Shown here: positions 6,189 through 64,000 of the stretch, piece by piece | How positions within the stretch are numbered: the stretch's first letter is position 1 | Layout: each line of letters starts with the position of its first letter | From: a virus | Strand: one strand, 5' to 3' | Length of the DNA: 64,000 bases | IMG/VR virus record: IMGVR_UViG_3300024261_000007 | Coordinates: 69,025-133,024 of that record | The notes under the pieces: generated by a model | The model's input: only the letters and a program-made list of their open reading frames with translations | What the model was told of the DNA's origin: nothing | The model's database searches: none | Made by a program: the position numbers and the translations under genes

Positions 6189-6247
6189 TTAAGAAGTATT
6201 ATAATAATTAAACATAGAACAAGAAATATTAGTAGGAGAATATAATC

Positions 6248-48374: not shown

Positions 48375-48407
48375 TATATTAAAACTAGAAGTCAGGGTTT
48401 TAAAATC

Positions 48408-48436
48408 CTGTAAAATTTATAAATCTATGATATAAT
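48408..48436 (+). promoter_or_regulatory. Early/middle-type promoter (CTGTAA-17-TATAAT)
   Basis: Same motif and 17-nt spacer. Confidence 0.65.
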
Positions 48437-48465
48437 AATAAAAACACAAAACAAGGAAGTATTTA

Positions 48466-49071
48466 ATGATTAATTTTTTAACTGAGATTTCACCGCTAAT
48501 TAAAGAGATAGAGCTACATCATGATCCAATCATCATTACAGTAAATGAGTTTAATGAAGAAACAGCTAATGAATTTGCTACTTTAATGAGTGCAGCACAA
48601 AATACAGGACAAAAAGTTGTTCCTGTAGTTATTGATTCGTTTGGGGGACAAGCTTACGCTTTATTGTCAATGATATCATCAATTAAATCTTCAAAAATAC
48701 CGGTTGCAACAATAGTAAAAGGAAAAGCTATGTCTTGCGGAGCACTATTGTCTTCTTTTGGGGAAGATGGTTTAAGATTTATGGATAAAGATGCGACAAT
48801 GATGATACATGACGTTTCGTCGATGGCATTTGGAAAAGTAGAAGAGTTAAAGTCTGATGCAAGAGAAGCTGAACGATTGAATAAAAAAGTTTTTACTATG
48901 ATGTCAAGGAATTGTGGTAAACCTGATGACTATTTTGTAAACTTAATTCATGATAAAGGACACGCTGACTGGTATCTAGATGCGGTCGAAGCTAAAGAAC
49001 ACAATATCACACAACATCTTAGAGTGCCTAGTTTAAAAGGAAAAGTAACTGTATCTTTTGATCTAGAATAG
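48466..49071 (+). CDS. clpP: ClpP-like serine protease
   Basis: IDSFGG, GKAMSCG (catalytic Ser), MMIHD (His), DWYLDAVEAKE. Confidence 0.85.
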   Translation: MINFLTEISPLIKEIELHHDPIIITVNEFNEETANEFATLMSAAQNTGQKVVPVVIDSFGGQAYALLSMISSIKSSKIPVATIVKGKAMSCGALLSSFGEDGLRFMDKDATMMIHDVSSMAFGKVEELKSDAREAERLNKKVFTMMSRNCGKPDDYFVNLIHDKGHADWYLDAVEAKEHNITQHLRVPSLKGKVTVSFDLE

Positions 49072-49179
49072 AGCTTTTTGTTTAATTGAAATCTTTAAAG
49101 CACTTCAAAACGCTAATGAAGAAGTCAAAGGAATTGTCAATACATACATAAGTAAGAAAAGTTAAAAAAGGAATTTATA

Positions 49180-49974
49180 ATGGAACAATTTTCAACTTTA
49201 AATAAAGATAAAGAATATGTTGTATCTTTACAACAAGAAGTAGGCGTTGTAGCTGATGGTGTATACGGTCCTAACACACATAGAGCAGTTAGACAATACT
49301 ACGGTATGCCTATTATGATGCATATGGGTAAAGTAGTGCCTATTGATTCTCCGCTGGAGATTGATTGGTCAGCACCTTTATATGAGCTTGATGATGGAAC
49401 AAAAAACTGGTATAAAAGAAAAGCAGACCCATCAACAATATGTGTTCACTGGGGAGGATTAAATACAAGGCACTGTTATAACGTATTTAATCTTGCTAGG
49501 GGTCGACACGTTTCGTCTCACTTCTTAATTGGGCGAAATCATAAGACAGGAGAATATGAAATCTTACAGTGTTTAGATACAGGACTAGCTGCGTATCATG
49601 CTGGAAAGTTTAATAAATATTCTATTGGAATTGATATTTGTATGCATCCAGATGACAAGTATTGGGAAAAAACTAAAGGTTGGTACCCAGATGCTGAACT
49701 TCAAGTATGCAAAATACCTGATAGAAGAGTTAGAGGTCGTAAACTTGTAATGATTGGTGATGATTTTGCAGATGTTTGCAGAGAGTTTTTACAGTCGTTA
49801 AGAGAATCAACAGGTTTGCTTGATAAGCCTATATGCGAAACATTAGATGTAATGTCTGTTAAAGAAGCATCACAATATAGCATTGTTGGTCACCATAACA
49901 TTTCAGCAAAAAAATGGGATGTTATACCTTGGGCAGAAAAACTATATTACGGGCTCGATGAAGAAATTGTTTAA
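49180..49974 (+). CDS. N-acetylmuramoyl-L-alanine amidase (Amidase_2) with N-terminal peptidoglycan-binding segment; endolysin candidate
   Basis: LQ..VGVVADGVYGPNT; ICVHW, SSHFLI, AYHAG..NKYSIGIDI, IVGHH..K.D. Confidence 0.8.
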   Translation: MEQFSTLNKDKEYVVSLQQEVGVVADGVYGPNTHRAVRQYYGMPIMMHMGKVVPIDSPLEIDWSAPLYELDDGTKNWYKRKADPSTICVHWGGLNTRHCYNVFNLARGRHVSSHFLIGRNHKTGEYEILQCLDTGLAAYHAGKFNKYSIGIDICMHPDDKYWEKTKGWYPDAELQVCKIPDRRVRGRKLVMIGDDFADVCREFLQSLRESTGLLDKPICETLDVMSVKEASQYSIVGHHNISAKKWDVIPWAEKLYYGLDEEIV

Positions 49975-49978
49975 TTGT

Positions 49979-50007
49979 GTGTAAATTATAATTTTTGTTT
50001 TTATAAT
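49979..50007 (+). promoter_or_regulatory. Early/middle-type promoter (GTGTAA-17-TATAAT)
   Basis: GTGTAA 49979-49984, TATAAT 50002-50007. Confidence 0.75.
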
Positions 50008-50030
50008 ATTCACACAATCAAAGGAATAAA

Positions 50031-50732
50031 ATGAACAAACAAAATTTTTTATATGATGATAAAATTGGACAAATTGAGTTAGTTCAAAGTATGGGTAAAG
50101 ATATAACAGTTGTAAACTCAGCAAGAGTTTCTTTCGGAGTGCATAAACAAGAAATGGATGACAAAGACAAAAAGCTTGTAAACTATCTTGTTGCTCATAA
50201 GCATACTTCTACTTTAGAACATAATATTGCAACTTTTAGAATAAAAGTTCCTCTCTTCGTCAGATCACAACATCATAGACACAGGACGTGGTCTTATAAC
50301 GAAATTTCAAGAAGATATACAGATTCTGTTTTACAATTTTATATACCTAAGGCTTATAGAACGCAGCATAAGTCAAACAGACAAGCTTCTAATATAAGTG
50401 AGTTAATAAATCCTCAAATGGGTTGTTATCCTATTGACTTAGAAAGCAGGCTTTGCAATGATGCTGTTGAGCATCATGTTCGTCTTTCTTTAGACTTATA
50501 TCATGATATGACGAATAAAGGCGTTGCAAGAGAGCAAGCACGCATGATTCTACCTCAAAATCTTTACACAGAATATTATGCAACTGCAAATTTAAATAAT
50601 ATTCTTAAGTTTATTGATTTAAGAACACATGAAGGTGCACAATGGGAAATTCAAAAACTTGCTGAAGGTATGCTAAGAATAATTTCAGATTTGTGGCCAG
50701 AAACAGTCAATTCTTATAAAAGAAATAAATAA
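50031..50732 (+). CDS. thyX: FAD-dependent thymidylate synthase
   Basis: NSARVS, HTSTLEH, RHRTWSYNEISRRY, REQARMILP, AQWEI. Confidence 0.95.
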   Translation: MNKQNFLYDDKIGQIELVQSMGKDITVVNSARVSFGVHKQEMDDKDKKLVNYLVAHKHTSTLEHNIATFRIKVPLFVRSQHHRHRTWSYNEISRRYTDSVLQFYIPKAYRTQHKSNRQASNISELINPQMGCYPIDLESRLCNDAVEHHVRLSLDLYHDMTNKGVAREQARMILPQNLYTEYYATANLNNILKFIDLRTHEGAQWEIQKLAEGMLRIISDLWPETVNSYKRNK

Positions 50733-50787
50733 ATAAAAATTATTTATGTAGCTCATAATTATCCTATACTTCTTTGTAAGGATAATT

Positions 50788-51168
50788 ATGAATTTAAGCA
50801 ACAAAAAAAGACTTCTCCTTGAAAGACACAAGGATCTAATCAACGCGCTCATGAGGTGTAGAATTATGATTGAGGATAGAGAAGACCCAACAGTACTTGA
50901 TATTATGACAGATATGAGAGCTTTGCCGGGCATTGTCACAGTTAGACAAACTAGACCGATTAGTGAACCTGTGACTAATAACGGTCATAGAATCGTAGAA
51001 CTTAATGTTTCTTATATGGAAAAATACTTAACTGTGACAAAAAGCGATGTCTTGAAAGAAGTTGCTAAATCACTTAAAACTATCGAAGGCGTTGACATGA
51101 TTAAAGTAATGGAACATGATAATGATATAGTCAATGCAAAACTTCAAAAAAGACCAATGATTATTTAG
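50788..51168 (+). CDS. Hypothetical protein
   Basis: AGGA RBS; DMRALPGIVTV and LKTIEGV repeats suggest a small ferredoxin-like alpha/beta fold. Confidence 0.65.
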   Translation: MNLSNKKRLLLERHKDLINALMRCRIMIEDREDPTVLDIMTDMRALPGIVTVRQTRPISEPVTNNGHRIVELNVSYMEKYLTVTKSDVLKEVAKSLKTIEGVDMIKVMEHDNDIVNAKLQKRPMII

Positions 51169-51181
51169 TAAAGGAAAAAAA

Positions 51182-51442
51182 ATGACACTAGACGACAATG
51201 CAATTAGCCACATTGCAAAAATTATTCAGATGGCCATCATTACTGGCACTGACATTGTAGATCATTTAAGAATGATGAAACTTGATACTAATCCTAATGA
51301 TTCACTAAAATTGATTTTAAATGATGAATACAAAGAAATTCATGATAATTCTATAAGTGTAATGGTTAAAAATTCGTTATCAAGAAGAGACGAAGAGTTA
51401 GGTTTAAACCAAGCACAAGAGGTAAATATTGACAATGAATAA
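51182..51442 (+). CDS. Hypothetical protein
   Basis: AAGGA RBS; 86 aa. Confidence 0.65.
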   Translation: MTLDDNAISHIAKIIQMAIITGTDIVDHLRMMKLDTNPNDSLKLILNDEYKEIHDNSISVMVKNSLSRRDEELGLNQAQEVNIDNE

Positions 51443-51812
51443 AGATATGTTAAAAGATGTTTTTGAAAAAAGACAAACTTTTATGGAAATGATTAAAGAA
51501 AAGTTTCCAGACTCATATCCAGAGTGGCCAGTAAATCTTTCAGAAAAGCAAGCTCAGACTACATGCAGAGAAACAGCTCTTAAAGGCGTCGAAGAAATGT
51601 TTGAGGCATTACAGCATCTTAAAAATTGGAAACCACATCGAGAAACAGAAATGCCTGATATTGATAGAGAAGAATTTTTAGAGGAAATTGTTGATGCTTT
51701 TAATTACTTTTTTTCTTTAATGATTTTAATTGGAGTAGATGTTGAAGAGTTTTATGACGCTTTCAATAAAAAAGACAGAATAATCAGAGAAAGACTTACA
51801 CAAGGATATTAG
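51435..51812 (+). CDS. All-alpha NTP pyrophosphatase (dimeric dUTPase / MazG / T4 gp56-like)
   Basis: GVEEMFEAL..NWKPH and EFLEEIVDAFNYF acidic metal-binding helices; NxKxxxxxxR..GY C-terminus. Confidence 0.8.
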   Translation: MNKDMLKDVFEKRQTFMEMIKEKFPDSYPEWPVNLSEKQAQTTCRETALKGVEEMFEALQHLKNWKPHRETEMPDIDREEFLEEIVDAFNYFFSLMILIGVDVEEFYDAFNKKDRIIRERLTQGY

Positions 51813-51813
51813 T

Positions 51814-52461
51814 GTGTACGAAATCGACGATGAATTGTTGATCTATAAAGATAGTTTTTACAGATCATCAGAATTTTCTTTACACTTGTGGAATGTTATT
51901 GAAAGCAAAATTCTTTATATACTTGGAATATTTGATACAGGAATTGTAACAGTATACTTTGACAATGAGAACATATCAATATCAGCAAGTTCAGAATTTT
52001 TTATTGTTGTAAATGAAAGCTATCGCTTTTTTTTGAACAACTGTCTATGCAATATGCCAGACTTTACAGCGTGTATTTTAATAACCTTTGAAAAAAAACA
52101 AGAGTTTAAATTAAATTACGACAAATGCTTTTTTTATTATGAAGAAGATAATAGTGAAGATGAAGGCGATATAGAAGCTCAAGTAGACATATCAGGAGAC
52201 ATTTCTTCTTTCACTGAGATCAAAGCAAGTATTCTTTCCAAAATAACAAAAGAACTCCAGTACTTAGTACATAAAAACGCGCTTCAATATAAAATTGAAA
52301 AGTCAAAAATTACCAAATTAGACGTAGAATACGAATATTATGTTTTACTTTCTAAAGTTTATAATAAAGGCTTGAAAGAAGTTATGATTAAAAAAAACGT
52401 AAACTCTGTATTACAAAAGTATATTTTAGAGATACAAGAAAGAACAAGAAATGAAAAATAA
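51814..52461 (+). CDS. Hypothetical protein
   Basis: 215 aa ORF tightly packed in operon. Confidence 0.6.
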   Translation: MYEIDDELLIYKDSFYRSSEFSLHLWNVIESKILYILGIFDTGIVTVYFDNENISISASSEFFIVVNESYRFFLNNCLCNMPDFTACILITFEKKQEFKLNYDKCFFYYEEDNSEDEGDIEAQVDISGDISSFTEIKASILSKITKELQYLVHKNALQYKIEKSKITKLDVEYEYYVLLSKVYNKGLKEVMIKKNVNSVLQKYILEIQERTRNEK

Positions 52462-52852
52462 AAACAGGTATTATTTACAAGAAGAATATCATCTTGATAT
52501 AGAAGAAGAAAAAGAAGAAATTGAAAATCTGACTACAAGTGAAGTACAGCAAGAAGCACTTAGACTACTACGGACATTTCTTAAGAAACCTGTTAAATGG
52601 AACAACATGTTTTCACTTATAGAAAAAGTAAGAAGAGAAATGCAGTCTGGAAGAGATAACTATGACAGCTCTGCAAATGATACGCAACTTTCTCTTATCA
52701 CACCTTTGCTTGTTTTTTTTAGCTTAACAATCAAGACTTCAATGCAAATGCAACCTATAGATAGCGAAATAATTATTAATATACTGGCAGATAATTTTAA
52801 AAGTCAAGAACATTTAGATGAGCTAGGAATAATGATTGATGAAATCTACTGA
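52451..52852 (+). CDS. Hypothetical protein
   Basis: 133 aa ORF overlapping neighbours. Confidence 0.6.
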   Translation: MKNKNRYYLQEEYHLDIEEEKEEIENLTTSEVQQEALRLLRTFLKKPVKWNNMFSLIEKVRREMQSGRDNYDSSANDTQLSLITPLLVFFSLTIKTSMQMQPIDSEIIINILADNFKSQEHLDELGIMIDEIY

Positions 52853-53744
52853 AAATACTTTGAAAGATTTTTTTGTAAAACAACATATCTTTTCTAAAAA
52901 GTTTTACAATTCAGAAATATTAAGCGAAAAAGAAAAAGAAGAGCTTCTTAAAACTTTATCTTTAGCAATGCACAACGAAATATCAGAAATTTTATCTTCG
53001 ACAAATTTTAAAGTTTTTGACAAAACGGACTATTCTGTTGATAAAAACAAGCTCCTTTACAACTCTGTTGATGTCTTTAGGTACATGATAGCAATAATGA
53101 ATCTTTATAATATTACAGATCACGAATTTACTTCTGCTTTTGACGAAAGAGACAAACACTTAGATATTATTAACGAAATAAAAAGTCCTAACAGGAATCA
53201 AAAAGTAGTCGTCGTTGACATAGATGACGTTTTATGCACTTTTAGAAGCCATTTTAATAACTACTTATACAAAAAGTATGATATATTTGTTGACCCAGAA
53301 AATACCTCTTATTACTCTTCAAAAGAAGTTAAAAGTGTAGGATTAAGTCCCGAAAGAGTTTTTGAAACTTTTATTGAAGAAGATGGATTTCTAGACATAC
53401 CTGTAGTACCTGAAATGGTTGATCTCTTACACGACATGAAAAGACAAGGTGTATACGTACAACTACTTACTTCGAGGCCAGAACATAATTTGAAATGCAA
53501 GTATCAAACTTTTGTTTGGCTTGAAAACAACAATATTCCTTTTGATAACATTAACTTTGCAGCAGAAAAGTATATATGGCTCGCTAAGAAAGACTTTTAT
53601 ATAAATAACAACTTGTTATCAGCAATTGATGATAGTCCAAAACATGCAATGGAATACGCAACACATGGTATTAAAGTTTTAGTTCCTCGAATGCCTTACA
53701 ATAAAAACTTAGATCACGCAAATATAACTTACTTTAGTTTATAG
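52839..53744 (+). CDS. Fusion: degenerate all-alpha NTP pyrophosphatase domain + HAD 5'(3')-deoxyribonucleotidase-like domain
   Basis: N-term MHNEISEIL..NFK..LLYNSVDVFRY; C-term HAD motifs VVDIDDVL, LLTSRP, K, AIDDSPKH. Confidence 0.75.
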   Translation: MKSTENTLKDFFVKQHIFSKKFYNSEILSEKEKEELLKTLSLAMHNEISEILSSTNFKVFDKTDYSVDKNKLLYNSVDVFRYMIAIMNLYNITDHEFTSAFDERDKHLDIINEIKSPNRNQKVVVVDIDDVLCTFRSHFNNYLYKKYDIFVDPENTSYYSSKEVKSVGLSPERVFETFIEEDGFLDIPVVPEMVDLLHDMKRQGVYVQLLTSRPEHNLKCKYQTFVWLENNNIPFDNINFAAEKYIWLAKKDFYINNNLLSAIDDSPKHAMEYATHGIKVLVPRMPYNKNLDHANITYFSL

Positions 53745-53766
53745 GTTTAATTTAAAATATAATTGT

Positions 53767-53795
53767 GTGTAAATTATACAACATCATTGTATAAT
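53767..53795 (+). promoter_or_regulatory. Early/middle-type promoter (GTGTAA-17-TATAAT)
   Basis: GTGTAA 53767-53772, TATAAT 53790-53795. Confidence 0.75.
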
Positions 53796-53838
53796 ATAAA
53801 AGTAATTAACAAAACAATATTGATAAATGGAGTAATAA

Positions 53839-54810
53839 ATGCCTATTAATAATAATCTTGAACCTGTTACTTTGCCTATGGATCTTAAATTCGGGCAAGA
53901 GCCAGTTACAAATTATATTAACAACTTAGAATCACTTAACATTGAGTTAATTGATGGTCCGACAAGAGAACAAGCACAAAAAATTGCATGGCACATGACA
54001 AAAGCAACTTGGGCTGATTCACCTAACGAGACCTCTTTTGAAAATGCTTCTGTTAAAGAAGCTTCCCAAAATCTTCAAGACGTCTTAAACTTTAGAGCTT
54101 TGCCTACGCCAATGGAGTGTTTAGGTTTTACGTTTAAGATTAGTGGGATTGATACGCAAACTGTAACTCATCTAATCAGACATCGAGCTGGATCATTTGC
54201 AGCACAATGTACAGGTGACAGAGATTTACGTAATGATAACATTCTTGTACCAGAGTCTGTAGAAAATTCTGACTTTCATGATAGATTTATTAATGTTGCG
54301 ATGCAAGCAAAGCAACTTTATTCTGATATGGTTGATTCTCGTGTTGTGTCGCTAATGGATGCACGAGTTATTTTGCCTAAGTCACTTGAGACTTTTTACA
54401 TTGCAAGATTTAATCTTAAAGATTTAATTGGTTTTATTAAGCAAAGACAAGACGTGCAGATTCAACCAGAAGTTGATAACATTATGGCAACTCGAATTGC
54501 AAGAATTGTTTGTGATGCTATTCCAGAAGTTGCATCATGTCTTGACTTTAGCAAACCAGACATGCATTATGTAAGAACATTTAGAGTCGAGCAAGCAGAT
54601 GGTTCTTATACTTCTAAGGGTACTAACTTATATTATCCTGAGCCTAAAAACGATATGTTTGACTTTAACGCACAAGATGCTATTTATCCATGTCGTCGTG
54701 AAGAGATTAATGGCAATAAGTCCGGTGAAGAAAAAATCTTTACGAGAATGTGGAATGATGATGTAAATGCTGTAAATGAAATTAAGCAGCAACTCGATAA
54801 TGAATTTTAA
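53839..54810 (+). CDS. Divergent ThyX-fold flavoprotein (motif Ser replaced by Cys)
   Basis: FTFKISGI..THLIRHRAGSFAAQCTGDR and DARVILP..ET ThyX-like motifs. Confidence 0.8.
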   Translation: MPINNNLEPVTLPMDLKFGQEPVTNYINNLESLNIELIDGPTREQAQKIAWHMTKATWADSPNETSFENASVKEASQNLQDVLNFRALPTPMECLGFTFKISGIDTQTVTHLIRHRAGSFAAQCTGDRDLRNDNILVPESVENSDFHDRFINVAMQAKQLYSDMVDSRVVSLMDARVILPKSLETFYIARFNLKDLIGFIKQRQDVQIQPEVDNIMATRIARIVCDAIPEVASCLDFSKPDMHYVRTFRVEQADGSYTSKGTNLYYPEPKNDMFDFNAQDAIYPCRREEINGNKSGEEKIFTRMWNDDVNAVNEIKQQLDNEF

Positions 54811-54886
54811 AACAGAGTTACAGATAGAAAACTTTGTTGCAAAACAATTAAAAACATAAAAAAATAATTACATAAGGAACATTTTA

Positions 54887-55336
54887 ATGAAAAAGATTTA
54901 TTTAGCTAGCGGTTGGTTTAATCCTACACAAGATGCAGAACTTACACAACTTGAAAAGATTTTTGACGAGCGCGCTGACTCTTTTGAACTAGCTTCACCT
55001 CGTCGTATCTTTGTTTGTCCTCCTAATGCACCAAAAAGTGTGCAAGATGAAACATTTACAGGAAATTTACATCATATTCAAACAGCAGATTTTTTACTTG
55101 TTAATACACGTGACAAGGATATCGGGACTATTTGGGAAACTGGTTACGCATATGCATTTGATAAGCCTATTATTTATTTTTGCGCAGGCTTGCCTAAAGG
55201 AGCTAAGTTTAATCTTATGTTAGCAAGAAGTGGTATTAAAGTTTGTACGTCTTTTAAACAGTTAGAAGATTATCTGGACAGAGCAATTAAGTCTGGTGAA
55301 CTTCCAAACGAGCCTTACGCAGATGCAATTGAATAA
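54887..55336 (+). CDS. Nucleoside 2-deoxyribosyltransferase / nucleotide N-glycosidase family protein
   Basis: KIYLASGWF, SPR, ADFLL, DIGTIWETGYAYAFDKPI, NLML. Confidence 0.85.
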   Translation: MKKIYLASGWFNPTQDAELTQLEKIFDERADSFELASPRRIFVCPPNAPKSVQDETFTGNLHHIQTADFLLVNTRDKDIGTIWETGYAYAFDKPIIYFCAGLPKGAKFNLMLARSGIKVCTSFKQLEDYLDRAIKSGELPNEPYADAIE

Positions 55337-55607
55337 AGATACTTTAAAGTTTTGGTCTTTTAAAGATACTAAAGACTATAAGAGCGCAAAGTATAAACAT
55401 ATATGTAATTCAAACGTATATCGAAGATTTACGTTTGTTAAGTCTTTTTTGTTAAAAGTAGAGTTGACAAACAATAAGTTTTCTTACGTAACACCTTTAT
55501 GCTTTATGTCTTACGGGTCTTTTCCTGACGGTAACTACGAAGGAATTGATGATAGCGGCCAGAAAATATTTTTTAACGAAGAACAAATTAATGAGGTATA
55601 CAGGTGA
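55323..55607 (+). CDS. Hypothetical protein
   Basis: ORF overlapping upstream stop; start uncertain. Confidence 0.5.
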   Translation: MQLNKDTLKFWSFKDTKDYKSAKYKHICNSNVYRRFTFVKSFLLKVELTNNKFSYVTPLCFMSYGSFPDGNYEGIDDSGQKIFFNEEQINEVYR

Positions 55608-55816
55608 ATTTTAAATACAAAAAAATTTTTAAAACATATGCTTTCCATAATATAGTTGCTCATCCTCTAATGCAAGTTTTAAATTGGGTAGGCAAAGAAA
55701 AGTGGGCTAATGAAGTTCATGATAAAACATTACCTAAAAAAGGTGTTCATGAAAAAGAAACAGCAAACACAGGAAATGATGTGCCTGAAGCAAACAGAAC
55801 AATCTTAAAAGATTAA
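55604..55816 (+). CDS. Small hypothetical protein
   Basis: GAGG RBS, GTG start; FHNIVAHPLM..VHDKTLP. Confidence 0.6.
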   Translation: MNFKYKKIFKTYAFHNIVAHPLMQVLNWVGKEKWANEVHDKTLPKKGVHEKETANTGNDVPEANRTILKD

Positions 55817-55817
55817 A

Positions 55818-56018
55818 ATGATCAATAAAATACCTGAATCTTTTAGGATTGGGAGTTGTATAAAATACAGCTACTTGTATTTAAACGATACAGATAGTAT
55901 AGGTGTAATTCTTAAAATAAAAGAAGATGCAAACTTTACTTGCATGGTTACGATTTTAACAGAACTCTCTAAAATAGAAATTATTCCTTATAATGTTATG
56001 GAATACAATATATTATGA
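55818..56018 (+). CDS. Small hypothetical protein (SH3/KOW-like)
   Basis: FRIGSCIKY...IGVILKI pattern. Confidence 0.5.
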   Translation: MINKIPESFRIGSCIKYSYLYLNDTDSIGVILKIKEDANFTCMVTILTELSKIEIIPYNVMEYNIL

Positions 56019-56216
56019 ATATTTTCATTCTCGATAAATTTTCTAAAAAAGTCACGGCGTATCACTGTGACAATCACGTAGTGAAAATGATGTTAAAATC
56101 TGACTAAATAAAATACACAGCTACATTTACTTTGGAACAAAAACAAAACGCTCAAATACTTTAAAAGAGTAAGATTTGTAAAATGCAAGTATTCAAAAAA
56201 GCTTAAATGGTTTTAA
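56015..56216 (+). pseudogene. Remnant of pyrimidine-dimer DNA glycosylase / DenV-like gene
   Basis: ATG 56015 reads MNIFILDKFSKKVTAYHCDNHVVKMMLKSD-stop(56107)-IKYTA, matching family N-terminus MNIFxLD..YHCDKHVVKMILESAQLLxTA; possible C-terminal KWF-stop at 56216. Confidence 0.7.
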
Positions 56217-56221
56217 AGTGC

Positions 56222-56253
56222 ATGTAAATTACATTTAAAAAATATATTATAAT
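56222..56253 (+). promoter_or_regulatory. Early/middle-type promoter variant (ATGTAA-17-TATTAT)
   Basis: TGTAAAT core with AT-rich -10 at matching spacing. Confidence 0.5.
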
Positions 56254-56279
56254 TTATAATCTCATATTAAGGATGATCT

Positions 56280-56549
56280 ATGCAAAAAACATACAATTCA
56301 TATAAAAATGGCTTACAAGTTTCTGACTTAGTAACTTTTATGCACAATGTATTTAAAAACCAATTTTCAGGGCCAAGAACAGCTTTGGTTATAGATAGAA
56401 GTTTCTTGTTTGACAATAAAACAAAGTATGGAATTAAAAAATTTTTTAGTTATAAAATGCTTGACTTAAATAGCAATAAAATATATGTCATAAAAACTCG
56501 TGACATAAAAGTAGTTAAAGTTTTTAAATCAATGAAAGAAGAAAAATAA
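56280..56549 (+). CDS. Hypothetical protein
   Basis: AGGA RBS; 89 aa. Confidence 0.55.
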   Translation: MQKTYNSYKNGLQVSDLVTFMHNVFKNQFSGPRTALVIDRSFLFDNKTKYGIKKFFSYKMLDLNSNKIYVIKTRDIKVVKVFKSMKEEK

Positions 56550-57536
56550 ATGAGAATAGGAATTACTGGAGAAAAAGGCTTTATTGCAACCAACTTAGCA
56601 CAAAAAATTATTAAACAAGGACATGAATTTGTATCACTTGACAATGCTGACTTTGCAAAAAGAGTTATGGATTACACACTATCAGGTGAAGTTTGTGTAT
56701 ATAAAAATAGTGTCAAAAGATGGACCAGCTTATTTGAGTTGTTAGGCTTAGACTGTATTGTTCATAATGCAGCAGTTGTTGGGACTGATGTTGTTGCTTT
56801 AAACCCAAGACATGCTATTAATACAAACGTGTTAGGCACACAGACAATCGTTGAGGCAGCAAATAATTGTAAAATGTTAATTGTATATACTGGTACAACA
56901 GTAATTTATGATACATACAAATATCAAGAAACTGACATTTTAGAAAACAGCGAAATATTTCCAAGAACAAACTATGCAGTGCAAAAGTACGCTGGTGAAA
57001 TGATTGTAAGAAATAATGCAAAAGAATGGCTTGTTACAAGACCACTATTTGCCTACGGTGGTGTAGGTGATATGAATTCTTTAATTGCTAAGTCTTTGTT
57101 TGGAGTTAAAAACAGCATAGAAAGTATTGATATGTTTTTAAATCCAGAAAAAATTAAAGACTACATGCATGTTGAAGACTTTTGTGAAAACGTCATGAGA
57201 CTTGTAGATGATGGAGTTAGAAACGAGGATTTTAATATTACAGCAGAAAATCCTCATACAACTTTGGAAATTATTAGTTTAATTGAAGAAGTTTCTGAAA
57301 GCTCTTTAGAAGGAATAATAAAGTGGCACCCAGAAACTGACTATCTTGGAAATCATAGACTTTCTAACCAAAAGTTTTTAGACTTTATGAAGACTTCAGC
57401 TACAAAAACTTTAAAAGAAGGTATTAAAGAATCTTGGAATACTATTAAAAATGATAAAAGCAATTACAATCCTTTAAAATATTTAGATCAAGCAAAAGAA
57501 AACAAAGTTGATCTTAAAAAATTCTTTCCAAAATGA
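56550..57536 (+). CDS. NAD-dependent nucleotide-sugar epimerase/dehydratase (extended SDR)
   Basis: GITGEKGFIA Rossmann motif, HNAA, TNVLGT, YAVQK catalytic YxxxK, DYMHVED. Confidence 0.88.
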   Translation: MRIGITGEKGFIATNLAQKIIKQGHEFVSLDNADFAKRVMDYTLSGEVCVYKNSVKRWTSLFELLGLDCIVHNAAVVGTDVVALNPRHAINTNVLGTQTIVEAANNCKMLIVYTGTTVIYDTYKYQETDILENSEIFPRTNYAVQKYAGEMIVRNNAKEWLVTRPLFAYGGVGDMNSLIAKSLFGVKNSIESIDMFLNPEKIKDYMHVEDFCENVMRLVDDGVRNEDFNITAENPHTTLEIISLIEEVSESSLEGIIKWHPETDYLGNHRLSNQKFLDFMKTSATKTLKEGIKESWNTIKNDKSNYNPLKYLDQAKENKVDLKKFFPK

Positions 57537-57597
57537 CTTGCCTTGTTTAGATTCTGTATTGTAAGATATTTATCTGTTGTATACAGGAGTAAATATC

Positions 57598-58371
57598 ATG
57601 CCAAGAGAATCAAAAAAAATTGACTTAGTTTGTCAAGAGTGTGGTGTAACGTATCAAAAGGCACCTTCAAAAGCAAAAAATTCTAAATTTTGTTCAAAAC
57701 CTTGCAAAGATAAATCAACCTCAAAACATAAAACAGCAAAGTGTTTGAGTTGTAAAAAAGAGTTTAAATCAACAAGAGGAAAAAAATATTGTTCAAGAAA
57801 ATGTTACATGGACGACAACAAGAAAAAAAGAGTAAGTCTTATATGCGACAATTGTGGCATAAAATATGAAAAGCCTTTTGATGAAGTAACTAAATATTGT
57901 AGTAAAACATGCCAGCATACAGCACAAAGTAGCGGTCTGCATGAGATACCTTCTAATGGAAGAATGGGTTTTAGAAAAGACTTACCTCCAAAATATTTTT
58001 TTAAGTCATCTTTAGAAGCTGATTACGCAAGATGGTGTGAGGCAACTAATAAACCTTACATATATGAGCATAAAACATTTACAGTTCAGTACGACGGAAG
58101 AGACAAACAATATACACCTGACTTTTATCATCCGGATAACGATAAGTATGTTGAACTTAAAGCTATTCGTAGAGATAGAAAGTTTAATTCAAATTTACTA
58201 GCTGCTGACATTTTAAAACAGCAAGGTTTAGACATAGATGTTTTGCTTATGCATGAATTCTATACTCAAATTAAACAAAGCGGACATTATTGGTTAGTAG
58301 ACAATATAGAAAATAAAAATTATCATGGAACAAGACACCTTATATATCTCAAAGCTAGCTCAAAAAAATAA
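57598..58371 (+). CDS. Zn-finger repeats fused to PD-(D/E)xK endonuclease (homing-endonuclease-like)
   Basis: AGGAG before ATG 57598; three CxxC...(F/Y)CSxxC repeats; SSLEADYA..YIYE..YTPDFY..YVELK. Confidence 0.75.
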   Translation: MPRESKKIDLVCQECGVTYQKAPSKAKNSKFCSKPCKDKSTSKHKTAKCLSCKKEFKSTRGKKYCSRKCYMDDNKKKRVSLICDNCGIKYEKPFDEVTKYCSKTCQHTAQSSGLHEIPSNGRMGFRKDLPPKYFFKSSLEADYARWCEATNKPYIYEHKTFTVQYDGRDKQYTPDFYHPDNDKYVELKAIRRDRKFNSNLLAADILKQQGLDIDVLLMHEFYTQIKQSGHYWLVDNIENKNYHGTRHLIYLKASSKK

Positions 58372-59545
58372 AGGGTTTGCAGCTTTAACAATAATATCGC
58401 TCGCAGCTGTGATGTCATTAATATCATTTATTGTAATTCAATACGGGCGTATATCCTTAAACGTAATGGAAGAAAAACAAATACTTGATTCGTGCAGCAT
58501 TGACTTAGGGACTTCTATAATAAAAACAAACAAAGTAGATGAAATATGTGACGTAAGATTTCTTAACGAATGTGCAACCACACTTTCAGAAAACGTAAAT
58601 CCAAACTTTCAATGTGTTGATTTAGGTTTAGAATGTGACTTAAATAATGTTTGTGAAAGAAATTTTGGCATTACTTCGAGTTATAATCCGGGAAGAGGAA
58701 ACACGTCTAAGTTTGTAACTATAACTGTTCCCGAAGAGGTTCATGACGTTAACTTAATAGATGCAGCAGTAATAATGTTGCTTGATTACAGCGGCTCTAT
58801 GAGTGGCAATAGAATTGTCCAGTTAAAAGACTCAGTCAGGCAATTTATTAACTCTGACTTTAATCTAAGTTACTCTGTTATCTTGTATAATAGTGACGTA
58901 ATAGTTTACTCAGATATTGGGAAAGGTCAGCAACACAAACAATCTGTAAACTCAATGGTTACAAACAATAACCCTTCAGGCGGGACAAGTTTTATTAAAC
59001 CACTTGACAAGGCAATACAACAAATAGCACAAACAGACTACGAAGCTTACTACGTGCTACTAATATCAGATGGATCGCCTAATGAAGGCATTAGCGCCTC
59101 ACAAAATTTTGTGCAAAGCAATGTCATGAATATTAACGACAACAGTTGTATTTTTTCTACTAATACAAGTCCGTGTATTACAGTATATACATTAGGTGTA
59201 GACAATGCAGATGTAAATGCTTTAACTTCAATAAGTGGTAATACTTTAAATACGTCACCTAACGAGTTTTCATTTACTGTCAATGCAAACCAAGTTTCTG
59301 CGGCTTTTAATGCTATTATTGCAGAAATTATGTGTAGAATTGGTCCAGTCATTGCTGAAGGTAATCTAAATGTTTTTAACAATACGCAAGTCTTAGAAGA
59401 AGGTATTGATTATTTACATGATAATTTATATAAGATTTTAAAGTTTTATGATACAGAACCCTTTAATATATGTACAAACATGTTAAACAACAATGCACAA
59501 ATTACTTTAAGATGGGGAAAGCCTAAATTAAATGTCGGACAATAA
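58325..59545 (+). CDS. TadG-like membrane-anchored vWA domain protein
   Basis: KNKG/FAALTII hydrophobic N-terminus; MIDAS DYSGSMS, GGT, LLISDG; Cys-rich region. Confidence 0.75.
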   Translation: MEQDTLYISKLAQKNKGFAALTIISLAAVMSLISFIVIQYGRISLNVMEEKQILDSCSIDLGTSIIKTNKVDEICDVRFLNECATTLSENVNPNFQCVDLGLECDLNNVCERNFGITSSYNPGRGNTSKFVTITVPEEVHDVNLIDAAVIMLLDYSGSMSGNRIVQLKDSVRQFINSDFNLSYSVILYNSDVIVYSDIGKGQQHKQSVNSMVTNNNPSGGTSFIKPLDKAIQQIAQTDYEAYYVLLISDGSPNEGISASQNFVQSNVMNINDNSCIFSTNTSPCITVYTLGVDNADVNALTSISGNTLNTSPNEFSFTVNANQVSAAFNAIIAEIMCRIGPVIAEGNLNVFNNTQVLEEGIDYLHDNLYKILKFYDTEPFNICTNMLNNNAQITLRWGKPKLNVGQ

Positions 59546-59756
59546 TAAAGAAGAAATAAGATTTGTTTCTCAACTAAACAAAGGTGACATGATTGATATT
59601 TTTTATTACGGAAAAAAAATAAAAAACAATTGTTTAGTTGTAGAAATTATACAAGATCACTACTTTACAAAAGGTTTAATAATTTATTTAAACGGTACTT
59701 CTCGCGAGACAATGGATCTTGAAAATCAAGAAGGCCTTTGGGTAGAAAAAGCTTAA
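59532..59756 (+). CDS. Small hypothetical protein (SH3-like)
   Basis: LNKGDMIDI..CLVVEI pattern. Confidence 0.5.
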   Translation: MSDNNKEEIRFVSQLNKGDMIDIFYYGKKIKNNCLVVEIIQDHYFTKGLIIYLNGTSRETMDLENQEGLWVEKA

Positions 59757-59757
59757 T

Positions 59758-60675
59758 TTAATATGATAATATAACGCAATCTTTAAAAACATTTTTTAAT
59801 TCATTAAATGCATTTTGAGTTATATTATATACTTCACTTCTAAAAAAGTTTAAAAGCCATGTTTTTTCTTCGTTAGTAAAACTTGAATCTAAATTTTCTA
59901 TTTCATCAATTTTTATATTTTTCAACTTATCTTTATCAAGTTCAGACATTTTACTATAACAAAAAGCCATAACTGATGCATGTTGATCACCAAATTCAGC
60001 AGTCTCAGTAAAATTAATAGCTTTAAAAAATTTTTCAACCAAATAAGCTTCATTTCCTCTTAAAAAGCTATTACTCATTGTTCCTGAATTTAAAAATGTA
60101 GTTGTTGTAATATTATTACTTCTTATATTTTTTTCTTTAACTGCATTTTTAAAGCTAGGTCTTTTTAAAACGCTATTACAAAAATAAAATGGCTGTACTG
60201 ATATGCCTGATAGTAAATTATGTTCCATATCGTGCAATGTCCAATGATAGATTTCAGCTTCTGACTGAGACTTAAAATCTTTAGTAAAGTCTCCACTACC
60301 TGAATGTATAATAACACATTCGTCATCATTGCTTTTTAAAATATTTTCCATTACTTTTGCTTTATTTACATCACCAGACTCAACAAAGTAGTTTTTAAAC
60401 ATGTTTAAAACTTTACTTGTCTTAGGAAAAACAATTCCTCCTTCAATGTAATCTTGATTTGTAACATCCATGAGCTCTGTTATATTATTATTTTTAATAT
60501 AACTTATAACATATTTTTCAATTTTTCCTAATTGAGAATGAGGAAAAGTAGCTAAATACCCAGTTTGATTTACTTTATCTTTGTTATATTTTAAATACTC
60601 ACCTTTTTCATTTAAAAAATTTTGATGCCATTCATTTAATAACTCTTTAAATTCTTTTCTATTTAGTTTACTCAT
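59758..60675 (-). CDS. Hypothetical protein with conserved N-terminal leader (internal virion protein candidate)
   Basis: AAGGA RBS on minus strand; MSKLNRKEFKELLNEWHQNFLNE; WTLHDMEH. Confidence 0.7.
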   Translation of the reverse strand: MSKLNRKEFKELLNEWHQNFLNEKGEYLKYNKDKVNQTGYLATFPHSQLGKIEKYVISYIKNNNITELMDVTNQDYIEGGIVFPKTSKVLNMFKNYFVESGDVNKAKVMENILKSNDDECVIIHSGSGDFTKDFKSQSEAEIYHWTLHDMEHNLLSGISVQPFYFCNSVLKRPSFKNAVKEKNIRSNNITTTTFLNSGTMSNSFLRGNEAYLVEKFFKAINFTETAEFGDQHASVMAFCYSKMSELDKDKLKNIKIDEIENLDSSFTNEEKTWLLNFFRSEVYNITQNAFNELKNVFKDCVILSY

Positions 60676-62276: not shown

Positions 62277-64000
62277 TTGTCTATTGATTTAATAACTCCA
62301 CCAGACAGGTTTGTTTCTCTTCATTCTCACTCAACTTTTAGCACTTTTGATGGATTAGGTTACCCATCAGATCATATAGACTTTGTGCTTTCTGAATCAC
62401 AAGGCATGGATGCTTGGGCACTAACAGACCACGGCAATGGTAACGGCCTCGCTCATGCACGCTCGCACGCTGTCAAAATGCAAAAGGCTGGGAAAAAGTT
62501 TAGACAAATCTACGGGGTCGAATTCTATTTTGTTCCCTCACTAGATCAATGGACTAATGACTACGCAGCTCATAAGCAAGCAATTAAAGATGCAAAAACT
62601 GCTGCTGCTGCTGAAAGGAAAAGTAAAGAAAAAATCATCATTGATGCTGATGATGAAAGCGGTGGTCTTGTCATAGAGGACGAAGATGAATCCAAAAAGA
62701 TTGATATCCTTAAAGACGAATGGAAACGTCGCTATCACTTAGTCGTCACAGCAAGAAATAGAAAAGGCCTTAATAACCTATTCACTCTTGTAAAGAAGTC
62801 ATACAAAGACGGCTTCTATAGATACCCTCGCATTGACTTTAAAATGCTTAAAGAACATGGCGAAGGCTTACACGTAAATACTGCATGTTTAGGCGGGATT
62901 TTTAGCAATAGAATACTCCGCGGCGTTGCACATGATAAGTCACGTGATGAAATCCAAAAAGATCTTTTAAACCTTACAGACAGATTTACAGACGCAGTAG
63001 GTATTGAAAACTTCAAATTAGAACTGCAGTTTAACAAGCTAAACAAGCAGCACGTTGTTAATGACTATCTCATAGAACATCATAAACTAACTGGTATTCC
63101 GTTGATCTCAACGGCAGATTCTCATTACCCGAGCAACGATAAATGGCAAGCAAGAGAGCTATACAAGAAACTTGGCTGGCTCGGTAAGAAAGACAACCTA
63201 ACACTACCAGCATTTGAAGATCTTAAATGTGAGTTGTATCCAAAAAATGCACAACAAATGTGGGACGAGTTCCTTGAAGGATACAAAGAGCATGACTTCT
63301 ATAAAGGTAATGAACAGTTAGTTAAAGAGTCAATAGAAAGAACTCATGATATTGTTTGGAATGATTTTGAAGATACATGGATAGATGTAAGTGCTAAACT
63401 CCCAACAATATCAATACCTAACAAAACACCTTTTAAACACCTATCAGACTTAGTTAAAAATGCTTTAATTAGCGAAGGGTTGCATACTAACAAAGAATAT
63501 GTAGATAGAGCTAAGTATGAATTGTCTGACATTAAGTATCTTGGTCATGAAGCTTACTTCATTACAATGTATGAGATCTTTAAGAAGGCTGAAACAAAGA
63601 CACTATTTGGTCCGGCTAGAGGAAGTGGAGGTGGAAGTTTAGTTAACTACTTGTTAGGTATTACACAGCTTGATCCTATTCCTTATAACTTGCTTTGGAG
63701 TAGATTCTTAGGTAGACACAGAGTTTCGTGGCCAGATATCGACACAGATGCTGGAGACCGAGATGAGCTGATCAATGCAGCAAAAGAGTTATATGGCGAC
63801 GATGCTGTTATCCCAGTATCAAACTTCAACACGCTTAAGCTTAAATCACTTGTAAAAGACATTGCAAAGTTTTATGATATTCCATTTGACGAAGTCAATA
63901 AGGTAACTGGTCCTCTTCAAGATCAAGTTATGCAGAAAGCAATGGATAAAAATCAAGAAAAGTCTGTATTTGTTCTTAAGCATGAAGACTGCATGAAATA
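62277..64000 (+). CDS. dnaE: DNA polymerase III alpha subunit (family C), 5' part; runs off window end
   Basis: Absent from ORF track (no stop in window). TTG start after AAGG; PHP motifs SLHSHSTFSTFDG, ALTDHG, GVEFY, HL, TADSHY; GPARGSGGGSLVNYLLGIT..DPI, WPDIDTD. Confidence 0.93.
   Translation, partial: MSIDLITPPDRFVSLHSHSTFSTFDGLGYPSDHIDFVLSESQGMDAWALTDHGNGNGLAHARSHAVKMQKAGKKFRQIYGVEFYFVPSLDQWTNDYAAHKQAIKDAKTAAAAERKSKEKIIIDADDESGGLVIEDEDESKKIDILKDEWKRRYHLVVTARNRKGLNNLFTLVKKSYKDGFYRYPRIDFKMLKEHGEGLHVNTACLGGIFSNRILRGVAHDKSRDEIQKDLLNLTDRFTDAVGIENFKLELQFNKLNKQHVVNDYLIEHHKLTGIPLISTADSHYPSNDKWQARELYKKLGWLGKKDNLTLPAFEDLKCELYPKNAQQMWDEFLEGYKEHDFYKGNEQLVKESIERTHDIVWNDFEDTWIDVSAKLPTISIPNKTPFKHLSDLVKNALISEGLHTNKEYVDRAKYELSDIKYLGHEAYFITMYEIFKKAETKTLFGPARGSGGGSLVNYLLGITQLDPIPYNLLWSRFLGRHRVSWPDIDTDAGDRDELINAAKELYGDDAVIPVSNFNTLKLKSLVKDIAKFYDIPFDEVNKVTGPLQDQVMQKAMDKNQEKSVFVLKHEDCMK

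Follow-up and report, generated by a model that had tools for sequence, protein, structure and literature searches.

Introduction

The flavin-dependent thymidylate synthases (ThyX or FDTS; EC 2.1.1.148; PF02511), such as TM0449 of Thermotoga maritima, and PolB, an enzyme of the polyoxin pathway with altered substrate range that methylates uridine and deoxyuridine monophosphate (UMP/dUMP) at C5 (PDB 4P5A/4P5B), are the closest described counterparts of a viral protein that we report here and call the paralog. It is encoded at positions 53839..54810 (+ strand) of a 64,000-nucleotide stretch of DNA, termed the window below, which comprises positions 69,025 to 133,024 of the IMG/VR record IMGVR_UViG_3300024261_000007, a 133 kb contig of a large uncultured marine phage with an estimated completeness of 53%, a G+C content of about 31% and genes nearly all on the + strand. 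In ThyX, Ser88 and Tyr91 (T. maritima numbering) are strictly conserved and Arg90 is conserved, and the variants S88A, R90A and Y91A consume the carbinolamine intermediate much more slowly, as stated in the passages on these residues in PMC8316439 and PMC11940539; Arg174 activates the uracil of dUMP (same part of PMC8316439). The same peptide has been described as the substrate-recognition peptide of PolB, in which Arg98' (Arg90 in T. maritima) bonds the phosphate and the pyrimidine O4, Arg193 (Arg174) bonds the pyrimidine O2 and Glu94' (Glu86) bonds the ribose O3' (structural part of PMC5003785).

Modified pyrimidines of phages have been attributed to another fold: the phage pathways covered in the relevant parts of PMC8989533 and PMC13326640 all begin with ThyA-family enzymes. 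These enzymes, among them the deoxycytidine monophosphate (dCMP) hydroxymethylase of T4 and the 5-hydroxy-dCMP synthases RB69 gp48 and DLP3 gp80, make a non-canonical pyrimidine deoxynucleoside monophosphate (dNMP), which is handed to the polymerase by a cognate dNMP kinase (passage on these modifiers in PMC13326640). A phage with two Thy1-family proteins has been described as well, Bacillus phage SP-15, for which the authors propose, as an untested assignment in the section concerned of PMC5977210, that the second one (gp130) is a hydroxymethyl-dUMP synthase. Another arrangement is found in the Z-genome phages (PurZ, MazZ, DatZ, DmtZ), where MazG-like, YfbR-like HD and nucleoside 2-deoxyribosyltransferase (NDT)-family enzymes remove dATP/dAMP and support the formation of dZTP, as outlined in part of PMC12884076.

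The window contains a canonical ThyX gene and, in a cassette of genes for nucleotide metabolism, the paralog, in which the anchors for flavin and nucleotide are retained and the recognition peptide is exchanged. By analogy with the systems above, the paralog may be a flavoenzyme that converts a pyrimidine dNMP to a product other than deoxythymidine monophosphate (dTMP), a reading to which we give about the same weight as to all others together.

A ThyX-like protein with a rebuilt substrate loop

The open reading frame (ORF) at 53839..54810 is open throughout and encodes a ThyX-fold protein of 323 amino acids that carries RHRAGSFAAQCTGDR. It matches Pfam Thy1 (PF02511) over residues 44-230 (6.4e-20, 72.2 bits, cut-off 24.8), with about 30 extra residues at the N-terminus and a C-terminal extension of 93 residues (231-323) outside this match. 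On the thyX equivalog model of NCBIfam (TIGR02170) it reaches 51.2 bits and thus falls under the cut-off of 87.9, whereas the canonical copy exceeds it with 172.5 bits. The latter (50031..50732, + strand, 233 aa) has RHRx7S, R90 and Y91 intact, matches Thy1 with 2.1e-51 and aligns end to end with the T. maritima ThyX chains (5e-38). An earlier note on this DNA had described a paralog with RHRx7C next to a canonical copy with RHRx7S, the replacement of HTSTLEH by LPTPMEC and of AQWEI by IQPEV, and a C-terminal extension of about 80 amino acids. All of these are present in the two ORFs, the extension being the 93 residues given above: the paralog reads THLIRHRAGSFAAQCTGDRDLRND, ALPTPMECLG, RQDVQIQPEVDN and VQIQPEV, and the canonical copy reads RHRTWSYNEISRRY, HTSTLEH and AQWEI. 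BLASTP aligns the two proteins over 80 residues only, with 35% identity; this and their position on separate old branches of the tree (see below) rule out a recent duplication of the canonical ThyX gene within the genome. A megablast search with window positions 48000-60000 against phage records gave no match.

Residues were mapped through two alignments, one of the canonical copy with the T. maritima chains (12 being subtracted from the chain index), the other of the family profile with ThyX of Mycobacterium tuberculosis and Corynebacterium glutamicum. Kept in the paralog are Glu58 (E93), Arg78-His79-Arg80 (R114-H115-R116), Arg147 (R176), Arg174 (R203) and Gln180 (Q209), and with them the residues that would bind FAD, the nucleotide phosphate and the pyrimidine O2 (the equivalents of E58, R78, R80, R147, R174 and Q180). 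Changed are His53 (L88), His59 (C94), Gln75 (H111) and the complete recognition peptide, namely Glu86 (A122), Leu87 (Q123), Ser88 (C124; Ser105 in M. tuberculosis), Gly89 (T125), Arg90 (G126), Tyr91 (D127) and Ser92 (R128), so that the substrate loop, residues 122-128, reads AQCTGDR. His53, now a leucine, reportedly has a role in folate stacking, an assignment said to go back to Koehn et al. in 2012. The paralog shares with PolB a histidine at the position of Gln75 (H111 and PolB His83), but PolB keeps Ser96-Ala-Arg98-Tyr99 and makes a methyl group (PMC5003785, section on the peptide), while the paralog has A122, C124, G126 and D127 in place of Glu94, Ser96, Arg98 and Tyr99.

These exchanges have to be weighed against the main alternative, which we regard as rather unlikely, namely that the paralog is still a true flavin-dependent thymidylate synthase, if a divergent one, placed in a cassette for dTTP supply and salvage in an AT-rich phage. 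The rebuilt loop would then have to take over from the lost residues, with cysteine or a small residue standing in for Ser88, R/K128, which lies two positions further on, for Arg90 and the aspartate serving as an acid. In its favour, the T. maritima variants S88A and S88C are said to be still active, reportedly after Koehn et al. in 2009, and the equivalents of R78, R147 and R174 are invariant in the clade to which the paralog belongs. The failed equivalog cut-off and the replacement of Ser88, Arg90 and Tyr91, all three reported to be kinetically critical, together with that of His53, argue against it. Its further support comes from the gene neighbourhood and from the distribution of thymidylate synthases, which are considered below.

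An old and almost virus-only clade

A search of 5.8 billion proteins, Tara entries included, yielded 1582 candidates, 1077 of them relatives at E<=0.001. The best 120 of these 1077 are 85-95% identical to the paralog, many of them come from marine metagenomes, and none bears a label beyond 'thymidylate synthase ThyX/(FAD)'. In a library clustered at 50%, the number of matching representatives was 690 at E<=1e-3 and fell to 145 at 1e-10 and to 40 at 1e-30. Scanning 185,579 species genomes with two peptide patterns revealed three cellular relatives, all of them on contigs of metagenome-assembled genomes. Among cultured phages, a member was found only in Geobacillus phage GR1, with 42% identity across 98% of the query. 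SP-15 gp130 was not among the relatives listed in the searches of cultured phages, none of which was aimed at gp130 itself. The literature search, which did not extend to supplementary files with their possibly relevant annotations, gave no description of the clade, which we name CxGD after its loop; the closest published idea is the proposal made for gp130.

For the phylogeny, 324 viral loci were gathered with five sub-family alignments and 6920 ORFs were called, of which 273 scored at least 100 bits to a family profile. Grouped greedily at 60% identity, these fell into 53 lineages, and 51 remained after the exclusion of two that have a canonical S-x-R-Y loop. A quick maximum-likelihood tree combined these 51 lineages with the two excluded ones and with 31 canonical ThyX encoded in the same loci, 84 rows in total, in an alignment that still included the motif columns. 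In this tree 48 lineages form one branch (SH-aLRT 99) and 30 canonical ThyX a separate one (99), and a small GGRDN group is sister to the 48 lineages. Judged by this tree and by the searches, the paralog belongs to an old clade that is sister to canonical ThyX and almost confined to viruses.

The changes seen in the window are shared by the clade. R114, R176 and R203, the counterparts of Arg78, Arg147 and Arg174, and likewise Y161 are present in all 48 lineages, R203 even in 271 of 271 ORFs, and R116 (Arg80) is found in 44/48. The aspartate at the Tyr91 position (D127) occurs in 46 lineages and in 265 of the 271 ORFs, glycine or alanine at the Arg90 position in 45, and P267 of the C-terminal tail in 47; C124, E93 and Q209 are each conserved in 44/48. 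At position 88, which corresponds to His53, every lineage has L, M or I. The view of the earlier note that the active site is altered is therefore supported, by a rewiring conserved across 48 lineages and by the equivalog score, but the cysteine is not the key residue that it was taken for. Despite its presence in most lineages, the ORFs have C in 205 cases only and V (39), G (16), T (10) or A (1) in the other 66, and the lineages without it (THADR, TQADR, ALGDR, GTGDG) are nested within Cys clades. Thus, the cysteine appears to be ancestral and to have been lost several times, and its proposed role as a ThyA-like nucleophile has to be rejected; the ThyA-fold enzymes with a Cys nucleophile differ from the paralog, which has the ThyX fold, in this respect as well. 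On the alignment, the hallmark of the clade is a small residue, followed by aspartate and then by a basic or polar residue.

This conservation also bears on the possibility that the paralog does not modify nucleotides at all and is a nucleotide-binding regulator, a flavin reductase for another enzyme or a decaying duplicate. The classical catalytic residues are indeed lost, and in GR1 a gene for an NfsB-like NAD(P)H nitroreductase of the flavin-reductase type (L001:8286-8885) lies directly upstream of the paralog, so that a flavin/redox partner is nearby. Nevertheless, such a role is very improbable: 48 lineages show a strong purifying pattern at the pocket positions R114, R176, R203, D127, Y161 and P267, more than 1000 close relatives have intact frames, the fold is predicted with confidence, and a mere reductase would not need arginines that bind phosphate and base. 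It is possible that the NfsB-like protein of GR1 supplies reductant to an enzyme that has no His53.

Predicted structure and assembly

The AlphaFold2 model of the paralog, computed from a 51-row alignment, has a mean confidence (pLDDT) of 94.4 and a predicted TM score (pTM) of 0.91. In a Foldseek search of the PDB its top matches were all ThyX or PolB (E about 1e-11), with target-normalised TM values of 0.65-0.78 and 16-21% identity; the model superimposes on PolB with a root mean square deviation of 3.0 A over 235 columns.

A model of two copies with two FAD gave a median score of 0.66, compared with 0.00 for the best of three controls; of 30 proteins with structures solved as pairs, 20 reach the mark used for this score, whereas only 1 of 23 solved as single chains does. 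Three runs share at least 95% of the contacts and the partner pLDDT is at least 90. The modelled interface comprises residues 1-13 at the N-terminus, 113-118, 125-127, 167-183 and 248-293, and thus parts of the rebuilt loop and much of the tail. Since ThyX tetramers have been solved, passing this mark may only mirror the likeness of the paralog to them. The two-copy model agrees with a ThyX-like assembly that has the rebuilt loop at the subunit interface, ThyX being a homotetramer with active sites between its subunits, and the N- and C-terminal extensions, which distinguish the paralog from ThyX, would take part in this interface. According to these models, the paralog would be an oligomeric, flavin-binding enzyme with the ThyX fold.

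A possible route to a modified pyrimidine

A flavoenzyme for a non-thymine product would be one that gives a free pyrimidine dNMP a C5 group other than the methyl group of thymine. The all-alpha NTP pyrophosphatases encoded nearby would convert dNTP to dNMP, the canonical nucleotide would be drained or diverted by the 5'-deoxynucleotidase and the deoxyribosyltransferase, and the product would reach the phage polymerase by way of the thymidylate-kinase-like dNMP kinase that other lineages encode. Ordinary dTMP would be provided by the canonical ThyX at 50031, and the product would finally be incorporated into phage DNA. The suggestion that the product is not thymine is drawn by analogy, because accessory families of the Z-genome phages and kinases as used with the ThyA-type modifiers surround enzymes of this kind. 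The role proposed for the paralog is the same as that of the phage ThyA-family modifiers, although the folds are unrelated.

As to the substrate, the O4-binding arginine is replaced by glycine beside a near-invariant new aspartate, which makes a cytosine nucleotide, an example given in the earlier note, plausible as the substrate. In the dCMP enzymes of the ThyA type an Asn-to-Asp switch is found at the base-recognition position (PMC13326640, part on substrate choice), which the new aspartate of the paralog mirrors. In view of the missing O4-binding Arg, the new invariant Asp next to it and the retained O2-binding Arg, we tentatively name dCMP as the substrate, to which carbon from methylene-tetrahydrofolate would be transferred via flavin N5, giving 5-hydroxymethyl- or 5-methyl-dCMP; as a specific assignment this is more doubtful than the general reading.

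The lost residues serve folate stacking and the activation of the carbinolamine, and for this reason a flavin-only reaction without one-carbon transfer has to be considered as a live alternative, in the form of either a hydroxylation at C5 with O2 to a 5-hydroxy-pyrimidine or a reduction of the C5-C6 bond with Cys or Asp as the proton donor. It would account for the loss of Ser88, Arg90, Tyr91 and His53 together with the retention of the FAD and nucleotide anchors. In addition, there is a precedent in phage ThyA homologs that switched from folate to flavin/O2 and make 5-hydroxy-dCMP (PMC13326640, part on these homologs). However, the cysteine is dispensable in several lineages, and some neighbouring genes described below are also difficult to reconcile with this reaction. 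Altogether we consider it quite improbable.

The CxGD clade as a whole may represent a new class of ThyX-derived flavoenzymes that make a non-canonical pyrimidine dNMP, a C5-modified C or U, for phage DNA, although we are somewhat more inclined to doubt this than to accept it. The chemistry of such a class is possibly not yet described for the ThyX fold. If this is true, a widespread pathway of DNA base modification has gone unnoticed in marine jumbo phages, in many small uncultured phages and in GR1, and with a ThyX-derived modifier phages would have arrived at modified pyrimidines a second time, independently of the ThyA family. The clade has many members, which abound in ocean viromes, and a new base would affect sequencing, restriction and defence where marine viral DNA is concerned. 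The clade would furthermore be a natural experiment on which ThyX residues govern one-carbon transfer, and with GR1 a cultured member is at hand that opens the question of the product to direct testing.

Gene neighbourhood of the paralog

In the window, the paralog adjoins genes for the nucleotide pool, which supports the changed substrate or chemistry inferred in the earlier note. Downstream of the canonical copy, a gene for a small all-alpha NTP pyrophosphatase of the MazG/dimeric-dUTPase-like type (51429..51812, + strand, 127 aa) has weak Pfam matches to PRA-PH and dUTPase_2; its neighbour cluster was found in 34-35 of the 51 lineages. It is followed at 52836..53744 (+ strand) by a fusion, identified by Pfam and PHROG matches, of a dimeric-dUTPase/MazG-like domain (dUTPase_2, 25.1 bits, residues 9-113) with a 5'(3')-deoxyribonucleotidase of the HAD type (NT5C, 35 bits, residues 123-277). 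Directly downstream of the paralog lies an NDT-family gene (54887..55336, + strand, 149 aa; PF05014, 1.7e-12; phrog_7995). A gene for an NAD-dependent epimerase/dehydratase of the short-chain dehydrogenase/reductase (SDR) type (56550..57536, + strand, 328 aa; PF01370, 4.5e-26) is of uncertain membership in this cassette; its best NCBIfam match, dTDP-glucose 4,6-dehydratase, reaches 90.7 bits against a cut-off of 365. The start of a replicative polymerase of the DNA polymerase III alpha/PHP-domain type (62277..63998, + strand; PF07733, 7.9e-43; PF02811, 1.1e-24) runs off the window.

Neighbours were counted within 10 kb of the paralog in the 51 lineages, NDT and kinase-like genes with clean seed profiles; some of the loci have short flanks and the counts are therefore lower bounds. 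MazG/dUTPase_2-like proteins are the most frequent (35 lineages), followed by thymidylate-kinase-like P-loop (dNMP-kinase-like) kinases in 31, NDT in 30 and YfbR-like HD 5'-deoxynucleotidases in 27. Polymerases belong to family A (21/51) or to the PHP/Pol III-alpha type (17/51). DUF6378 proteins were found in 11, dCMP deaminases in nine and SDR epimerases in five lineages, and ligase, SNF2 helicase, an MCM-like protein and RecA are also recurrent. In GR1, the paralog is surrounded by genes for NDT, YfbR-like HD, kinase-like, dUTPase, NUDIX and PolC-like proteins. Beside the ThyX-like gene, four loci encode fusions of the kinase with NDT of about 305-314 aa (L206:8513-9448, L207:8485-9429, L197:8569-9486, L170:6269-7204), which suggests that both activities act on the same nucleotide.

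The grouping of MazG-like, YfbR-like HD and NDT-family proteins with a base-making enzyme and a polymerase is shared with the Z-genome cluster. The core enzyme is ThyX-like here and not PurZ, and in the window an NT5C-type HAD domain takes the place of the HD enzyme of other lineages. A Z-genome cluster was rejected as an explanation, since PF00709 was found in two of 44 records and not in G000, the incomplete contig of the window. The two matches belong to sister jumbo phages (L333:366-1574 on the - strand, which is G001:C1:11365-12573, and G003:C1:135346-136356; 402 aa, about 315 bits). Both have a GDEGKG loop and are 35-38% identical to cellular PurA and 25-28% to actinophage PurZ-like proteins; they are probably PurA encoded by an auxiliary gene.

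Directly beside the paralog, four loci encode shortened ThyA-like proteins of 170-302 aa (L086:11050-11562, L093:11037-11555, L195:11039-11947, L169:9597-10340), which match only the PF00303 core and keep the catalytic cysteine. Diagnostic for ThyA-family enzymes are Asp at the position of Escherichia coli N177 for the dCMP type and Asn at D169 as the 5-hydroxy-dCMP signature (PMC13326640, part on these positions). Three of the four have the Asp at 177, and the protein of L086 has Asn at 169 and Asp at 177, which is the published 5-hydroxy-dCMP signature. A second enzyme for the same product beside the paralog would be hard to explain if the latter carried out the flavin-only hydroxylation discussed above.

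In five lineages, members of the epimerase cluster are encoded 1-2.7 kb away from the paralog, which would fit later glycosylation of the hydroxyl group formed in such a reaction. A GT1-family glycosyltransferase is encoded in G000 (C1:3573-4805; PF00534, 38.7 bits), about 118 kb from the cassette and outside the window. G002 and G003 have glycosyltransferase clusters, whereas G001, a sister genome that is complete, lacks glycosyltransferases of both PF00534 and PF00535, so that these enzymes are variable in this phage group; the absence from G001 also speaks against the flavin-only reaction. The GR1 gene annotated as a glycosyltransferase had no Pfam match. DNA glycosylation is thus not supported as a general link, given the complete G001 and the distance of the G000 gene.

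Occurrence together with other thymidylate synthases

In the jumbo-phage clade G000-G004, canonical ThyX and the paralog occur together in all five records, with paralogs of 58-95% identity, which agrees with the distinction from ordinary ThyX made in the earlier note; no match to PF00303 (ThyA) was found in G000-G003. Among 22 other records of at least 90% completeness, the paralog is accompanied by canonical ThyX in five, by a full ThyA in one and only by a mini ThyA-like protein in one, and is alone in 15. Three pyrimidine-C5 enzymes are encoded in G006, where the paralog occurs together with canonical ThyX and with a ThyA-like protein of the cytosine type. Taking the 22 records together with G001 and GR1 as complete genomes, seven of 24 have canonical ThyX or full ThyA besides the paralog, and the paralog therefore does not show a distribution complementary to that of an ordinary thymidylate synthase. 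These cases of coexistence, in all five jumbo-clade and in five of the 22 near-complete small genomes, and the three enzymes of G006 are difficult to explain if the paralog is a true thymidylate synthase.

Several observations nevertheless weigh against a product other than dTMP. The 15 records named above and the complete cultured phage GR1 have the paralog as the sole gene of the thymidylate synthase type, which is what a genuine synthase would look like. The dCMP deaminase, the thymidylate-kinase-like kinase and the dUTPase-like proteins (9, 31 and 35 of 51 lineages) together make up a classical set for dTTP supply, and the low G+C content of the window is in line with this. The NDT of the window is closest among solved chains to the N-deoxyribosyltransferase 6EVS (8.6e-9, full length) and matches DNPH1-type dNMP hydrolase chains only weakly (E 0.1 or worse). 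It thus resembles transferases that act on nucleosides more than hydrolases of dNMPs, which would make a plain salvage role of the cassette possible; NDT and the nucleotidase could simply serve salvage, as they would beside a true thymidylate synthase. A kinase-like or HD gene was not found in the 133-kb contig, which covers 53% of the estimated genome. With regard to dCMP, the invariance of the Arg174 equivalent fits a uracil substrate equally well, and where a cytosine-type ThyA-like enzyme is encoded beside the paralog, as in some lineages, dCMP is less likely to be the paralog's own substrate.

Further genes of the window and of related loci

L086:8091-9056, L093:7967-8902 and L095:8641-9948 encode a protein that has a dinucleotide-binding motif (GGGISGL) at the N-terminus and a main body matched by neither Pfam nor NCBIfam; its gene immediately precedes those for the epimerase and the ThyX-like protein. 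The L095 protein also includes a dUTPase_2-like domain as a fusion, and its gene is followed by a radical-SAM gene. The cassette of L195 includes genes for a protein with the N-terminal domain of a dATP/dGTP diphosphohydrolase (6246-6620; PF18909, 6.4e-28) and for a protein of the UDG superfamily (8296-9012; PF03167, 1.4e-17).

In the window, the epimerase is adjoined on its downstream side by an ORF for an HNH-endonuclease-like protein (57577-58371; phrog_1271, 4.8e-13), which overlaps the start of an ORF with a VWA domain (58325-59545; PF00092, 1.2e-10). Upstream of the canonical ThyX gene, a head protease and a lysin are encoded at 48466..49974. Still further upstream, between 6248 and 39033, the + strand has ORFs of 1044, 1783, 1226, 1490, 1564, 935 and 1965 aa, and an ORF of 2483 aa is located further upstream in the contig; these large ORFs presumably encode virion or injected proteins.

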